In this document: positions 24,080 to 30,518 of the stretch, piece after piece | How the letters are laid out: each line of letters starts with the position of its first letter | Position numbering within the stretch: position 1 is the stretch's first letter | From: Erysipelothrix inopinata | Lineage (GTDB): Bacteria; Bacillota_I; Bacilli_A; Erysipelotrichales; Erysipelotrichaceae | Length of the DNA stretch: 32,000 nucleotides | Assembly: GCF_014396165.1 (NCBI RefSeq) | Contig: NZ_CP060715.1 | Location: 930,001 to 962,000, forward strand | Reading direction: 5' to 3' | The notes under the pieces: model-generated | Databases searched by the model: none | What the model was told of the DNA's origin: nothing | The model's input: the letters and a program-made list of their open reading frames with translations, nothing else | Program-made: the position numbers and the translations under genes

Positions 24080-24087
24080 TTTATGTG

Positions 24088-24112
24088 AAGAGGGGTCAAA
24101 CCTTCTTTTTTT
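24088..24112 (+). terminator. Weak intrinsic terminator after ohr
   Basis: AAGAGGG-GTCAAA-CCTTCTT (one G-U) followed by a T-run. Confidence 0.45.
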
Positions 24113-24166
24113 GTGGAATTCAGTGGCTTTCCTTGATAGACTATTCCATGTGAGGTGTTAAGAATT

Positions 24167-26452
24167 ATGATTAATAAATACGAAACACTAGTATTAATAA
24201 AAGGCCGGGATGCAACGGATCAAATCGAATCGTTGCAACCTGCTAAAAATAAAAAAGAATATGAAATTAAACTAAAAGGAAAAGAAGAAAGTTTTATTCG
24301 TTCTCGCAAAGATGTCCAACTTAACGCATGTATTGAGAAAAAGGATTTAACTTATGAAGCGGTGATCATTCACAATGAAGTTTTTTATAATGTAGAGTCT
24401 GTTTGTTACTATGAAAATCATTATGCCAAACTGTATTTCAAAGATGGAAGTGATAACTTGTTTTTAATCCAAGATTTTGAACTTGTGCGTATTGTTGATG
24501 GTTCAGAACCATTTGGAGATAAGACAACTGCATGGTCCGCTTGGAATGTTTATGCTCAAAAAACAAACCACCCGCTTGCTTCAAAATTCACAACGATGAA
24601 TTGCCTTCCAACCGACACGGCTGCTTATGCTCTTTTAGATCGCACAGGGGTTCTTGAACTCCCTGAAAAAGACAAATTAATGTACTATTTGGGTGGATAC
24701 TCATTTGGAATCAAAGAAAGCCTTGACTATGCATTGACGAGTCGTTTATCGCAAGTTCATGTTCCTATCGCTACAAATTACGAATCCACATTACTATCAA
24801 TGATTATGAATGCTGTAATTGATCAAAGACAAGTAACTGTGTTTGGTGATACCTTGAGCTTAACGAAAGCTTACGATTTACTGAAACGGTATGATTATGA
24901 TTCCCTAATTTATTATGATGAATCGGAAGTTACAGACCTTTTTGATGCATGCCAAGAAAATATTAAGTCTCGAAAAAATCCAACTTATGATGTGTTTGAT
25001 GAAGATTCATATCGTCATACAGAAGCAGACTATCGCCATAATTTGAATCAAATTGAAATCATGAAAGATTACGAACTTGAATTAGATACTTATGAAAAAT
25101 TATTTTTTGATATACAAACTGAATATCAATACTTTAAAAATTTCAATAAAGATCAGTATCTCATGTACAACAATGAGATTATCCTAAATAAAGTTGAGTC
25201 ATCTTTAATTTTAGACTTAATTGATGAACTTGTGGAAATGAAAGTTGAAACAGAAGAGTTTTCACATGAATATCGAAAAAGTTTAAAACATCGATTTGGA
25301 TTGGATCTCATGGATGAACAGATATCATATCAGCACATTGTACTCCGATTACAAAATATGTTTTATCAAGCAATCCTCGCAGAATTATTAGAAAAAATAG
25401 ATCAAATTCGATATAATATCGAATCATTAAAACCGGAACTTCTAAATGAAAAACTTGCGAGTTTGGGAGAAAAATTGATTGACTACCATCTTCATCATTA
25501 TTATATGACGATGAAAAATATTGATGAGACAAATGAGGAAAGTGTTCAGATGAGATTCCCAATTACGTTTAGATCATGGGATCACGTCAATGAAACTGAC
25601 CATGAGTTTGACTGTGTAATTGGACTGAATACGGGAGATGTTGACTTAGTAACCGGAGCGTATGTATTGGCGCATGCTCAACAAATGATTTCCTTTGATA
25701 AAGTGATTGAAGAAGATGGTGAAGAAAGTTCGTATGTAGATACGAACTACAGTGTTGCAGATCATTTAGATCCTAACACTTCATCTTTCGCACAAATGAT
25801 TCACAGCCATCCAAAGACACAAGCGTATATTACGATGACCACTGAATTCAAAAATGAATCATCACTGATGAAACGAATGTTTTTAAATCAAAAATTGTAT
25901 CGAAATCAGCTTCATGAAAGTCGCCATTTCCATGATTCTCGAATTGAAATGCTTCACTTCAATGATATGCTGGATCCGTACTTCATATTGGAAAAGGATG
26001 AGTACCTCTTCGAAGCAACTGCAGAAAGTGACTTGGATGATTATTGTATTGAACATCAAGAACTCTATGATATGTTTAGTTCTTATACACAATTGAAATC
26101 GTTTGATAGACCGATTGTTTTTTCTAAGTTTTATGAGTTCAAAAATGTTCGTCGTTTCCAAGATGATACAATGCTAATGATTAAAAATCATCTGAAAATG
26201 AACCGTTCAATATTAAATGTTGAACAAGATATTTTACTTATTAATATTATTAAGAATGTTCAGGATTTAAATTTAAGTATTAAGGACGAAGTTGTTCCAT
26301 ATATAATCTACAATCGTGTCAGTCATGAAATTGTAACGGTAGTCTATTCTGCAGAAATGGATGAAACTTACATTGAAATAATAAAAAAACAGTATAATAC
26401 ATTACCACTTGAAGTGTTTTTGGAAGAACCGCTCCAAGCACTCGTGGTATAA
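24167..26452 (+). CDS. Full-length homolog of Upf1-like SF1 (AAA_11/AAA_12) helicases with degenerate catalytic motifs
   Basis: Collinear with my recollection of the Firmicute family, but every catalytic motif is replaced. SVIQGPPGTGKTQTILNII has become QVHVPIATNYESTLLSMI. YDYVIIDEASQVDLVTGALAL has become FDCVIGLNTGDVDLVTGAYVL. HYRCHP..FCNQKFY has become FKNESS..FLNQKLY. GAGGTG SD lies 9 nt before ATG 24167. Confidence 0.55.
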   Translation: MINKYETLVLIKGRDATDQIESLQPAKNKKEYEIKLKGKEESFIRSRKDVQLNACIEKKDLTYEAVIIHNEVFYNVESVCYYENHYAKLYFKDGSDNLFLIQDFELVRIVDGSEPFGDKTTAWSAWNVYAQKTNHPLASKFTTMNCLPTDTAAYALLDRTGVLELPEKDKLMYYLGGYSFGIKESLDYALTSRLSQVHVPIATNYESTLLSMIMNAVIDQRQVTVFGDTLSLTKAYDLLKRYDYDSLIYYDESEVTDLFDACQENIKSRKNPTYDVFDEDSYRHTEADYRHNLNQIEIMKDYELELDTYEKLFFDIQTEYQYFKNFNKDQYLMYNNEIILNKVESSLILDLIDELVEMKVETEEFSHEYRKSLKHRFGLDLMDEQISYQHIVLRLQNMFYQAILAELLEKIDQIRYNIESLKPELLNEKLASLGEKLIDYHLHHYYMTMKNIDETNEESVQMRFPITFRSWDHVNETDHEFDCVIGLNTGDVDLVTGAYVLAHAQQMISFDKVIEEDGEESSYVDTNYSVADHLDPNTSSFAQMIHSHPKTQAYITMTTEFKNESSLMKRMFLNQKLYRNQLHESRHFHDSRIEMLHFNDMLDPYFILEKDEYLFEATAESDLDDYCIEHQELYDMFSSYTQLKSFDRPIVFSKFYEFKNVRRFQDDTMLMIKNHLKMNRSILNVEQDILLINIIKNVQDLNLSIKDEVVPYIIYNRVSHEIVTVVYSAEMDETYIEIIKKQYNTLPLEVFLEEPLQALVV

Positions 26453-26477: not shown

Positions 26478-27323
26478 ATGATTAATTTAGAAAATGACTA
26501 TTTAAAAGTAACAATTGCACTAGATGGTGCTGAAATACGTTCAGTATTTGATAAGAGTAGAAGAATTGAAAGAATGTGGCATGCAGATGCAAAATACTGG
26601 GGGAGAACATCACCAGTATTATTTCCAATTGTAGGCCAAGTTAAAGGTGGTAGCTATACCTTCGATGAAAAGGATTATAACTTATCTCAACATGGATTTT
26701 TGCGTGATCAAAAATTCGAATTGGAATCTAGTAGTGAGAATCAAGTAAGTTTTATCTACGAAAGTCTTGATAAAATGAAAGATGTTTATCCATTTGAACA
26801 TCGTGTTACAATCACGTATACCCTAGTGGAAAAGACAGTTTCAGTTACGTGGAAAGTGGAGAACTGTGATACACAAGAAATGTACTATAGTATCGGAGCG
26901 CATCCAGCGTTTAATTTAAATGGCGATCACTATGAGTTTGAATTTGAAACACGTGGAGATGTTCGAGAGTTCAGTCTTAAACAAGGATTGGTTGCAAACA
27001 GTGAAATAATTGCTGTGAAACCAGTGGAAGTTAATGTTGAAAATCTTCAAAACGATGCCATTATTTATGATAATATCGATGCAGTATCTTTAATTAACCG
27101 CGATAACGGTGAAGTAACGCGATTAGCGTGTCCTGGATTTGACTATGTTGGACTTTGGATGCCTGTGACTGATGGAATTCTTGCACCATTTGTATGTATA
27201 GAACCTTGGATGGGAATTACCGACAGCTTTGATGAGTACGGTGATTTTAGAAATAAACTATCTATTAAGAAACTAGCGCCTGAACAACAAGAAAGTTATG
27301 AATATACGGTATCTTATCTATGA
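26478..27323 (+). CDS. Aldose 1-epimerase family protein (LacX-like)
   Basis: WGRTSPVLFPIVGQVKGG, LSQHGFLRD, YSIGAHPAFNL and CIEPW motifs typical of LacX/YihR-type mutarotases. GAGGTG SD, 25 nt after the upstream stop. Confidence 0.8.
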   Translation: MINLENDYLKVTIALDGAEIRSVFDKSRRIERMWHADAKYWGRTSPVLFPIVGQVKGGSYTFDEKDYNLSQHGFLRDQKFELESSSENQVSFIYESLDKMKDVYPFEHRVTITYTLVEKTVSVTWKVENCDTQEMYYSIGAHPAFNLNGDHYEFEFETRGDVREFSLKQGLVANSEIIAVKPVEVNVENLQNDAIIYDNIDAVSLINRDNGEVTRLACPGFDYVGLWMPVTDGILAPFVCIEPWMGITDSFDEYGDFRNKLSIKKLAPEQQESYEYTVSYL

Positions 27324-27727
27324 GACAAAAACTAACTGAGTTTATGAGAGGACGTTATGGCGTCGATATGTTGAATAAGTTTTTAATGAACTTTACGATT
27401 GCGATGGCGATTATTGCGACAGTCGTATCATTAATGACGGGTAATCAATATTTATTTATTTTGTGGTTGATTCCTTTAGTGTTATCTTACTATCGTATGC
27501 TCTCTAGAAATATAAATCGTCGTTACCAAGAGAACCAAAAATATCTCTTAATCTATAACAAAGTTCGGAATAAAGTAAGAGCTATTAAAAATAGAATTGT
27601 TGATTTCCCTAAATATAAATATTTGAAATGTCCAAACTGTGGTGCGACAATGCGTGTACCACGTCGTAAAGGGAAGATCACAGTAACGTGTCCAAAATGC
27701 TCTCATCGATTCGATGCGAAGTCATAA
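27320..27727 (+). CDS. Small membrane protein with a C-terminal zinc ribbon
   Basis: Two TM helices, then CPNCG...CPKC (four-Cys ribbon). ATGA overlap with the LacX-like stop. Confidence 0.7.
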   Translation: MRQKLTEFMRGRYGVDMLNKFLMNFTIAMAIIATVVSLMTGNQYLFILWLIPLVLSYYRMLSRNINRRYQENQKYLLIYNKVRNKVRAIKNRIVDFPKYKYLKCPNCGATMRVPRRKGKITVTCPKCSHRFDAKS

Positions 27728-27737
27728 TTAACACAAT

Positions 27738-27755
27738 ATGTTAATAATTTCACAA
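27738..27755 (+). promoter_or_regulatory. Rex (redox repressor) operator candidate upstream of adhE
   Basis: ATGTTAATAATTTCACAA matches TTGTGAAWWWWTTCACAA at 16 of 18 positions. A weaker TGTGCAAAATATCGCA lies at 27824-27839. Confidence 0.4.
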
Positions 27756-27756
27756 T

Positions 27757-27790
27757 GTAAGCGTTTCACTAATTCGCTTGCATTTTTTTA
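27757..27790 (+). terminator. Intrinsic terminator after the zinc-ribbon gene
   Basis: GTAAGCG, an 11-nt loop, CGCTTGC, then ATTTTTTTA. Confidence 0.6.
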
Positions 27791-27884
27791 TACCTAAAAT
27801 TCGTAGAAAAGTATTGAAAATCATGTGCAAAATATCGCATATAGACTACGATATACCTGTGAAAGAAATAACAAGGAGGAAGTT

Positions 27885-30518
27885 ATGTCAGAGAAAAAAG
27901 AAACAATCGATAACGAAGTAAATGTCTTAGTTGCAAATGCGCAGGAAGCATTACAAGAGTATCTAACATTAAATCAAGAACAAATTGATTTCATTGTCGC
28001 AAAGGCAAGTGTTGCAGGGGTAGATCAACATGGTAATCTTGCAGCTTTAGCTATTGAAGAAACGGGTCGTGGTGTCTTCGAAGATAAAGCAACCAAAAAT
28101 ATGTTTGCGTGTGAACATGTTATTAACCATATGCGTCATCTTAAAACTGTAGGAGTTGTAAGTGACGACGAAGTTACAGGTATTACTCAAATTGCGGATC
28201 CAGTTGGTGTTATATGTGGTATTACACCAGTTACAAACCCAACATCTACTGCAATGTTTAAATCATTAATTGCTTTAAAAACGAGAAATCCAATTATCTT
28301 CTCATTCCACCCATCTGCACAAAAATGTAGTGTTGAGGCAGCACGTGTAATTCGCGATGCAGCAGTTGCAGCGGGTGCTCCTAAAAACTGTATTCAATGG
28401 ATCGAACGTGGATCAAAAGAAAAAACTGATGAATTAATGAATCATCCAGGTGTTGCAACAATTCTTGCAACAGGTGGTAACGCAATGGTGCGTGCAGCAT
28501 ACTCATGTGGTAAGCCAGCACTTGGTGTTGGAGCTGGTAACGTTCCTGCATATATTGAAAAAACAGCTGATCTTGATCAAGCAGTTAATGATATCGCGCT
28601 TTCAAAAGGATTTGATAACGGTATGATTTGTGCTTCAGAACAAGCAGTTATCATCGATAAAGAAATCTACGATGAAGCAATCGAAAAATTCAAAAAATAC
28701 GGTGTTTACTTTGCGAATGCAACAGACAAGAAAAAAATTGAAAAATTCATGTTTGGTGTCGCATCAACAGATAAAAACTATGCAGAAGCAGTACTAAATC
28801 CAAACGTAGTTGGTAAAGATGCTACATGGATTGCAGAACAATCTGGAGTTAAAGTTCCTGCAAATACAATTATTCTCGCAGTTGAATGCGCGCAAGTAGG
28901 ACCTAAGGAAGTGTTAACACGTGAAAAATTATCACCAGTTCTTGCTTTCCTCAAATCTGACAGCACAGAACAAGGTATTGATTACGCACGTCAAATGGTT
29001 GAGTTTAATGGACTTGGTCACTCAGCTGCAATTCATACAAAATCAAAAGAAATATCAGAACGCTTCGGGGAAGCAGTTCCAGCAATCCGTATTATCTGGA
29101 ATTCACCTTCAACATTTGGTGGTATTGGTAACGTTTATAATGATTTTATTCCTTCCTTAACACTTGGTTGTGGATCATACGGTCACAACTCAGTTGGCGA
29201 TAATGTTGGTGCAGTTCACTTACTTAACATCAAAAAGATAGGGAGACGTAATAACAATATGCAATGGTTCAAAGTACCTCAAAGAATTTATTTCGAAAGA
29301 AACTCAATCCGTTATTTAAAATCAATGAGAGATGTACAAAAAGTATTTGTTGTTACTGACCAAGCAATGGTTGATTTAGGTTTCTACAAACTTGTATGTG
29401 ATCAATTAAATCTTCGTGCAAACCGTGTCGATATCAAGTTGTTTGCTGATGTTGAACCAGATCCATCAATCGAAACAGTTGAAAAAGGTGTTGAAATGAT
29501 GAAAGCATTCCAACCTGATACAATCATCGCATTAGGTGGTGGTTCACCAATGGATGCTGCTAAAGGAATGTGGATCTTCTACGAACATCCAGATGTAGAC
29601 TTTAACGACTTAAAACAAAAATTTATCGATATCCGTAAACGTGCATTCAAATATCCTGATCTTGGAGAAAAAGCACAACTTGTATGTATTCCAACGACAT
29701 CAGGAACAGGTAGTGAGGTAACGCCATTTGCTGTTATCACAGATAAGAAAGCAAATAAGAAATACCCACTTGCTGACTACTCAATGGTTCCTAATGTTGC
29801 AATTGTTGACCCAATCTTCACAACAAATCTTCCTGCAACAGTTACTGCAGATACAGGACTTGATGTATTAACACATGCAACTGAAGCATTTGTATCTAAC
29901 TTTGCAAACGACTATACAGACGGACTTTGTATCCAAGCAATTAAAATTGTCTTCGAATATCTCGAACGTTGTGTTAAAGATGGTAGAAATGATTTAGAAG
30001 CACGTGAAAAAATGCATAATGCTTCAACAATGGCAGGGATGGCATTTGGTAATGCATTCCTTGGTATGAACCACTCATTAGCTCATAAAATTGGTGGACG
30101 TTGGCATGTAATTCCTCACGGACGTATCAATGCTATCTTAATGCCAAACGTAATTCGTTATAATGGTACACAACCTGAAAAACCATCACTATGGCCAAAA
30201 TACAATGTGTATCGTGCAGACCAAAGATATGCAGAACTTGCACGTATCCTAGGGCTTAAAGCAGATACAGTTGAAGAAGGTGTTGAAAGCTATGCTCAAG
30301 CATGCTACGACCTCGCTGTACGTTGTGGTGTCACAATGAACTTTAAAGACAATGGTATTGCCGAAAAAGAATTCTTCAAATATGAAGAAGAAGTAGCATA
30401 CCTTGCTTATGAAGACCAATGTTCACCATGTAACCCTCGTTTACCTCTTGTAAAAGATATGCGAGACATTCTAAAAGCATCATACTATGGTGAAGTTTAC
30501 GATCCAAAGCGTAAATAA
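27885..30518 (+). CDS. adhE: Bifunctional acetaldehyde-CoA/alcohol dehydrogenase
   Basis: N-terminal ALDH domain with the catalytic Cys context GMICASEQ. C-terminal Fe-ADH domain with [10 protein letters not shown] and [19 protein letters not shown] precedes ATG 27885. 877 aa. Confidence 0.95.

Follow-up and report, generated by a model that had tools for sequence, protein, structure and literature searches.

What keeps a 2.3-kb helicase-like gene in frame once the residues that would make its product a helicase are gone? The question is raised by a locus of Erysipelothrix inopinata, in a window of 32,000 nucleotides (nt) of contig NZ_CP060715.1 whose own numbering is used below. Its forward strand carries, between positions 24167 and 26452, a gene for a protein of 761 amino acids (aa), here designated P0001, in a genome designated G000. 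We put at roughly 80% the probability that this gene, a descendant of a Upf1-like superfamily 1 (SF1) helicase-nuclease, encodes a pseudohelicase that is under purifying selection and acts by binding rather than by catalysis. A preliminary description of the locus, drawn up from the sequence, had proposed a catalytically dead but full-length helicase homolog; the first half of that proposal stands on firmer ground than the second.

The open reading frame (ORF) runs from an ATG at 24167 to a TAA at 26450-26452, and reading it through confirms that no stop or frameshift interrupts its 761 codons, as had been stated. The frame is open already from a GTG at 24155; the conserved start is the ATG at 24167. 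A Shine-Dalgarno sequence, GAGGTG (24152-24157), was read 9 nt before this ATG and is the same in all four orthologs, in agreement with the good ribosome-binding site claimed for the gene.

General profile libraries say little about the ancestry of this protein. In Pfam, at E <= 10, it gives one noise match and none to AAA_11, AAA_12 or DUF2726, and it fails the gathering threshold for AAA_11. NCBIfam and PADLOC return no match, while PHROGs and the PDB sequences return noise only (E from 0.08 to 1). A phmmer search of 1.84 billion representative proteins retrieved one ortholog and six weak matches (E 1e-5 to 5e-4). All six carry AAA_11, and the two that are full-length (907 and 919 aa) combine AAA_11, AAA_12 and DUF2726; besides orthologs, this search yielded only helicases of the AAA_11/AAA_12/DUF2726 type. 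The relationship becomes clear when families are compared with each other. An alignment of the four orthologs, set by hhalign against an alignment of 26 active family members, gives a probability of 99.1% (E 1.7e-18), aa 2-507 falling on family positions 4-520. A hidden Markov model (HMM) of the family scores 97 bits on aa 2-508 in hmmsearch, and BLASTP against P0014, the best single member, yields one high-scoring segment pair over the same residues at E 2e-18 and 21% identity. Identity to active relatives is only 18-21%. Over its N-terminal two thirds, which span the beta domain, RecA domain 1A and the coiled-coil insert, the protein is securely homologous to the family. These four methods bear out the assignment to a Upf1-like Firmicute family of the AAA_11/AAA_12 kind. 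The family consensus set out in the preliminary description exists too, the same boxes (FGFNLSQK, GPPGTGKT, LQKxYYExKxxEL, DEASQVDIVTGA, VGDxKQLP and HYRCHPKIIGFCNQKFY) being found in the 26 active members. Other Erysipelotrichaceae have ORFs, about 720-740 aa long, that match the family profile near Walker A; these were considered as further dead homologs and rejected as unrelated to the pseudohelicase, against which phmmer gives them E > 0.09.

Against this background of secure descent, every alignable catalytic motif has been replaced, and every replacement is identical across the four orthologs, just as the preliminary description had it for the E. inopinata protein. The peptide strings on which that description relied were all found where it had placed them on the forward strand. 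The family Walker A sequence GPPGTGKT is VPIATNYE (aa 199-206, nt 24761-24784), a pairing supported by the alignments, in which the P-loop Lys becomes Tyr, the Thr becomes Glu, and three of the four family Gly positions are lost. Upstream of it, the Q-motif NLSQ (NxSQ in general form) has become SFGI, and motif Ia has changed from VSNNNSA to FGDTLSL. Walker B, DEASQ in the family, is likewise gone; the string GLNTG (aa 486-490, nt 25622-25636) first paired with it is off by one residue, the alignments giving LNTGD (aa 487-491, nt 25625-25639), so that Asp-Glu is read as Leu-Asn. Directly behind, the family box VDxVTGA is kept as VDLVTGA (aa 492-498, nt 25640-25660), and further on FLNQKLY (aa 572-578) is also kept; the retention of both flanking segments, already remarked upon, is seen in the family alignments. 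Of the 237 columns that are at least 95% conserved in the family, only 55 are preserved. With its descent from a helicase and its lost catalytic motifs the protein qualifies, by its sequence, as a pseudohelicase. It is not an AAA_11/AAA_12 protein in the functional sense, given that Walker A and Walker B are replaced and the Pfam thresholds are not reached.

Collinearity with the family extends over most of the protein. The N-terminal, family-specific beta-rich domain (aa 1-175, nt 24167-24691) is aligned to family positions 1-175, and BLASTP, hmmsearch and hhalign all begin their alignments at residue 2. In the active family this domain has no Pfam model, and a PDB sequence search with it found nothing. 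It is followed by the first half of the RecA-like domain 1A (aa 176-260, nt 24692-24946), which contains the degenerate Q-motif, Walker A and motif Ia and scores z = 11 in a semi-global profile test. A long helical coiled-coil insert (aa 261-460, nt 24947-25546) is aligned to the family insert, whose pattern EYxYF ... LQKxYYExKxxEL is represented by EYQYF and, against the second box, by LQNMFYQAILAEL. The second half of domain 1A (aa 461-510, nt 25547-25696) holds the degenerate Walker B and then the retained VDLVTGA.

Beyond this point the likeness fades. The stretch from motif III to motif IV survives as a remnant (aa 511-582, nt 25697-25912) in which GDxKQLP is lost, HYRCHP corresponds to EFKNES and FLNQKLYRNQL is retained. 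In a semi-global comparison with shuffled controls, aa 509-582 match the corresponding family stretch with z 4.9 for P0001 and 3.7 for its ortholog P0003, no shuffle (0/200) scoring as well in the first case and 2/200 in the second. Two pairings had been proposed here, VGDxKQLP with SFDKVIEE (aa 509-516) and HYRCHP with FKNESS (aa 561-566). The similarity of the block as a whole is significant, but the exact residue pairing depends on the aligner; MAFFT and hhalign, whose alignments of the remnant agree, delete the GDxKQLP box rather than pair it with SFDKVIEE. When aa 509-761 were compared locally, by HMM and by hhalign, with one family block at a time, nothing significant emerged apart from a short hhalign match of FLNQKLYRNQL to the family FCNQKFYNNEL, at the right place and with E 0.028.

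The C-terminal region (aa 583-761, nt 25913-26449) is strongly constrained and stands at noise level in the semi-global shuffle test against the family (z -0.4 to 1.5); it gave no HMM signal there, and phmmer over the 1.84 billion representatives gave no match to the region. MAFFT and low-threshold maximum accuracy (MAC) alignments by hhalign, made independently, agree on a set of weak, collinear anchors: for motif V, NVRRFQ opposite TVHKYQ; for motif VI, LNV opposite INVAVSRA, its Ser-Arg deleted and its arginine not alignable; then PYIIYNR with RYIxYNNF, and the final EPLQALVV with QPLKMLIK. The last of them lies at about position 819 of the 920 of the family, just before the catalytic core of DUF2726. 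The region could be a 2A domain that has degenerated extremely, together with its linker, or else something that took its place; the former is plausible, though not proven. The core of DUF2726, a Vsr-like PD-(D/E)xK nuclease, is absent, with no Pfam match at E <= 10 and no signal for a block HMM with shuffle control. A C-terminal segment, PYIIYNRVSHEIVTVVYSAE, was tried as a dead DUF2726 core and rejected, no test supporting it and both aligners placing it at the post-2A linker RYIxYNNFEII. In all, the protein is some 150 aa shorter than its active relatives, the last ~90 aa, with the nuclease core, being missing and internal deletions amounting to ~57 aa. The term "full-length" is therefore only partly justified: the protein is about 150 aa short and ends just before the DUF2726 core, and its last 180 aa show no statistically detectable 2A similarity and are modelled poorly.

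Structure prediction draws the same boundary. With a single sequence, AlphaFold2 (AF2) reaches a predicted local distance difference test (pLDDT) of 32. With a multiple sequence alignment (MSA) of the family, aa 1-510 are modelled at a pLDDT of mostly 60-90, including mostly 70-88 in the N-terminal domain, whose secondary structure is all beta-strands to about aa 110, and long helices at 279-326, 388-420 and 423-449 in the insert. Values for aa 514-539 and 549-761 fall below 50, those for aa 583-761 ranging from 23 to 44. Among PDB structures, the best Foldseek matches of this model are IGHMBP2, SETX, Upf1 and Aquarius (probability 0.99-1.0), in agreement with the sequence result; this agreement is partly circular and the C-terminal part of the model unreliable. 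A Foldseek search of viral structures found nothing.

Is the gene still maintained? Only four closely related sequences were available for comparison, including P0001 itself: a metagenome-assembled genome (MAG) of a second Erysipelothrix species (G017) carries an ortholog of 92% identity, and two contigs of one metagenome carry orthologs of 97% and 83%. Within the four, identities span 83-97% and the degenerate motifs are the same. The pairwise Nei-Gojobori ratio of nonsynonymous to synonymous substitution rates (dN/dS) is 0.049-0.093 over all pairs, with synonymous divergence (dS) ranging between 0.16 and about 2. Constraint is seen in all regions, most strongly in the coiled-coil insert (0.033-0.035), and aa 583-761 stand at 0.07-0.08. 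Between E. inopinata and the second species, the pseudohelicase has a dN/dS of 0.066, while the neighbouring MetQ, Ohr and LacX have 0.061, 0.062 and 0.052. A decaying pseudogene is excluded because the ratio equals that of functional neighbours and the frame is open in four lineages. Selection, rather than pseudogenisation, had been claimed from the open frame; the calculated ratios, at 0.05-0.09 for all pairs and regions and equal to those of MetQ, Ohr and LacX, bear this out, and the orthologs carry no intact motifs.

The distribution of the gene is narrow. It is present in 2 of 28 genomes of the genus Erysipelothrix, in addition to the two metagenome contigs. Four other Erysipelothrix species (G007, G021, G005 and G020) have the order metQIN (minus strand), ohr, lacX, adhE without the pseudohelicase; three of them also have a zinc-ribbon gene between lacX and adhE, and ohr and lacX lie only ~50-120 bp apart in G007, G020 and G021. 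As the ohr/lacX synteny is kept without the gene in these species, the gene is a lineage-specific insertion upstream of lacX. In a tree of the family the dead clade sits on a very long stem and has short tips, a shape consistent with a burst of change that then gave way to stasis. Placing the clade within the family by this tree was attempted and given up, the stem being very long and the tree without an outgroup.

The genome offers no active paralog. A profile search found no AAA_12 match in it, and its only marginal AAA_11 match concerns the Walker A region of an unrelated open frame of 715 aa (G000:C1:2097959-2098132, L057). The family HMM recovers the pseudohelicase ORF (97 bits) and an unrelated SF1 helicase-like ORF of 649 aa (28 bits), and no paralog of the pseudohelicase itself exists in the genome. 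The search for an active paralog, which had been recommended, was thus made with both AAA_11/AAA_12 and the family HMM and came back empty. The decoy role once suggested is consequently excluded in so far as it presupposes an active paralog in the same genome, no active family member being present there. Active members occur in other genera of the Erysipelotrichaceae (e.g., a full-length one in G090), and they are not the closest to the pseudohelicase. Together with its motifs, the protein has changed its charge. It has a net charge of -55 and an isoelectric point (pI) of 4.8, every region being acidic, compared with a mean charge of +2.5 (range -14 to +18) and a mean pI of 7.6 in 121 active relatives. 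Within its own genome, only 3.4% of the ORFs with 300 aa or more reach this acidity per residue, and the most acidic among these start with N-termini that resemble signal peptides, which suggests secreted surface proteins.

The parent family comprises more than 6000 proteins at E <= 1e-20, of ~905-920 aa and mostly from Firmicutes, whose annotation goes no further than 'AAA domain-containing protein' or 'DNA helicase'. Its architecture consists of the N-terminal beta domain, an AAA_11 domain split by the coiled-coil, AAA_12 and a C-terminal DUF2726 nuclease, and its members include P0014 (Bacillaceae bacterium S4-13-56), P0024 (Bacillus sp. UNCCL81) and P0100 (Clostridium baratii). The active members are stand-alone genes in variable neighbourhoods, and three of the four inspected neighbourhoods hold restriction or defence-type genes. 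Among these neighbours (L051 1-7622; L055 1914-2735 and 15766-17505; L004 28-3150) are a DNA methylase and MutH-like, EVE-HNH and HNH proteins, as well as SRA-HNH, a caspase-like protease and a PLD-helicase protein of 1040 aa. The helicase core of the family matches the PADLOC models MkoC, MkoA and Hhe. The family may be the one called Nhi or Hna, an equation that a literature check could not establish. DUF2726 itself has been described as a Vsr-like restriction-endonuclease fold with links to mobile elements and to fusions of the defence type (PMC3710099, PMC3424549). It is therefore plausible that the parent family acts in defence, perhaps as a stand-alone immunity gene.

The pseudohelicase gene lies among housekeeping genes, which serve as context. 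Just after ohr, a consensus scan marks a terminator-like hairpin followed by a T-run (24087-24108, forward strand), the sequence of which is conserved at the three other orthologous loci. Some 58 nt are left between this hairpin and the start of the gene, without a strong sigma-70 consensus; within them, TGATAGACT is a possible extended -10 element. Downstream on the same strand, after a gap of 25 nt with no terminator-like site, lies a lacX-like aldose-1-epimerase gene (26478-27323), and the start of a zinc-ribbon membrane protein gene (27320-27727) overlaps its stop; neither is regarded as a partner. Synteny of the lacX-like gene and adhE (window 26478-30518) holds across the five Erysipelothrix species compared, four of which have the zinc-ribbon gene between the two. 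For AdhE, identity in the more distant species is 83-88%, for LacX only 47-55%. In G005, the ohr-lacX spacer of 942 bp houses another gene, of 254 aa and on the opposite strand (L047 4319-5083), and insertions seem to have recurred at the ohr-lacX site.

The history that best accommodates these observations would begin with a stand-alone protein composed of the beta domain, RecA domain 1A with its coiled-coil insert, RecA domain 2A and the DUF2726 nuclease. The ancestor of a single small Erysipelothrix clade would have acquired its gene once, at the site that separates ohr from lacX. After that acquisition or before it, the residues for ATP binding and hydrolysis and the canonical nucleic-acid-contact motifs were lost, the nuclease core went as well and the protein turned strongly acidic; purifying selection has since held it almost constant. 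From the replaced motifs we infer that the pseudohelicase cannot hydrolyse ATP or translocate on nucleic acid and that it acts by binding, in a role that we infer to be that of a scaffold or sensor. The most likely mode would be that of a protein-binding scaffold or adaptor working through the N-terminal domain and the coiled-coil stalk. This mode is favoured because the protein is strongly acidic, because the insert is its most constrained part, and because the insertion of the related helicase CnuH has been proposed to make protein contacts (PMC11090510). A nucleic-acid motor or clamp would be less likely than a protein binder.

Several considerations weigh against the pseudohelicase as just outlined. 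The loss of ATPase activity and of nucleic-acid binding is read from the sequence alone, and the preference for protein binding draws only on the acidic charge and on the low dN/dS of the insert. The structural match of aa 1-510 is partly circular in that the MSA behind the model was the helicase family itself. Moreover, the C-terminal 180-250 aa could hold some other activity, and the parent family is itself without a demonstrated function.

The rival that survives best, a possible although rather doubtful one, is a non-catalytic binder of nucleic acid, that is, a sensor of sequence or structure or a static clamp, comparable to the inactivated SF1 helicase domains of AddB and RecC, by which Chi is read on single-stranded DNA. 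There is precedent for such a function, as the inactivated helicase domain of AddB carries a putative Chi-recognition site (PMC3321194) and RecC contains inactivated helicase- and nuclease-like domains (PMC1185551); the retention of the RecA-1A scaffold and of VDLVTGA would also suit it. However, a net charge of -55 with acidity in every region is difficult to reconcile with nucleic-acid binding when the active relatives are near neutral, and the replaced motifs include Ia, III and IV, through which SF1 helicases contact nucleic acid. Furthermore, unlike for AddB and RecC, no motor partner is encoded nearby, and the neighbouring genes predate the insertion.

Two further rivals turn on the defence associations of the parent family. 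It is unlikely that a defence-type helicase-nuclease was domesticated here and survives as a relic, now a strongly acidic, ATP-independent decoy or mimic, or an adaptor with a new, orphan C-terminal module, which would bind a specific protein (for instance a DNA-binding protein of phage or host) through its N-terminal sensor and coiled-coil stalk; if true, this would represent a new way of recycling immunity hardware. Slightly more improbable again is a repurposed immunity protein that kept its N-terminal sensor and in which aa 583-761 would form a new ATP-independent effector or a decoy or mimic surface. Such a protein would agree with the frequent location of active members near restriction or defence-type genes, with the PADLOC matches of their core to MkoA, MkoC and Hhe, with a C-terminal region that is orphan and yet strongly constrained, and with a high acidity as in DNA mimics. 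On the other hand, the gene lies among housekeeping genes rather than in a defence island and P0001 has no PADLOC match, the defence role of the parent family is itself no more than plausible, and no effector-like domain is recognisable.

That the protein could still be an NTPase or helicase working with non-canonical residues is very improbable. RecA-like proteins that bind ATP without a P-loop exist, few as they are, and nothing direct speaks for such an activity here, where Tyr and Glu stand in place of the P-loop Lys and Thr, three of the four Gly are replaced, Walker B has Leu-Asn for Asp-Glu, and the motif VI Arg is unalignable. Least credible of all is a pseudogene in slow decay, open by chance, for although its catalytic motifs are all gone and its distribution is very narrow, four lineages keep the 2.3-kb frame with its conserved start codon and Shine-Dalgarno sequence at dS values of up to 1.6-2.0 and a dN/dS of 0.05-0.09 that matches functional neighbours.

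How does the pseudohelicase compare with known systems? With its parent family it shares the N-terminal domain, the split domain 1A with its insert, VDxVTGA after Walker B, the FxNQKxYxNxL box in the same place and the order of elements to about position 819 of 920; it differs in the replaced motifs, the lost DUF2726 core, the charge of -55 against ~+2.5, and its restriction to one Erysipelothrix clade. The Upf1-like SF1B structures (IGHMBP2, 4b3g; SETX, 8ftm; Upf1, 2gk7 and 2xzo; Aquarius) resemble it in RecA domain 1A with an inserted stalk, but in them motifs I-VI are intact and the proteins work as ATP-dependent RNA/DNA helicases, and template modelling scores (TM-scores) to them are low, at ~0.2, the C-terminal third of the model being unreliable and the N-terminal domain different. 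Among defence systems, CoCoNuT has CnuH, a Upf1-like helicase into which a helical coiled-coil is inserted and which, in type III-B, carries a fused Vsr-like PD-(D/E)xK nuclease (PMC11090510). The matches of the parent family to Hhe and to the Mokosh proteins MkoA and MkoC are limited to the generic helicase core, and neither that family nor the pseudohelicase belongs to the Hhe, Mokosh or CoCoNuT systems; nor does the pseudohelicase locus have McrBC-like or other partner genes nearby.

Other parallels are functional. In AddB and RecC (PMC3321194, PMC1185551), PriA of Deinococcus radiodurans (PMC4504706) and yeast Utp25 (PMC9539457) alike, the helicase fold has outlasted the ATPase motifs, selection having retained it for binding or for structure. 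AddB and RecC work within complexes that contain an active motor, and they bind single-stranded DNA, while PriA and Utp25 belong to superfamily 2. The pseudohelicase differs from them in being stand-alone, highly acidic, nuclease-less and charge-reversed, with no identifiable partner, and in coming from a helicase-nuclease family. The practical reach of the finding is small, as a single small Erysipelothrix clade carries the gene. Still, the case is unusually clean, in that a datable single insertion at a conserved site is combined with full loss of the motor and nuclease residues, a charge reversal of ~55 units and later selection that equals in strength that on the housekeeping neighbours. 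The pseudohelicase is a natural 'separation-of-function' version of its parent, and the partner of its N-terminal domain and stalk may reveal the target of the active enzymes. The E. inopinata protein is of the same kind as AddB, RecC, D. radiodurans PriA and Utp25; bacterial examples of such helicase-derived pseudoenzymes are few (AddB, RecC and D. radiodurans PriA), and none of those documented comes from this widespread Upf1-like helicase-nuclease family.

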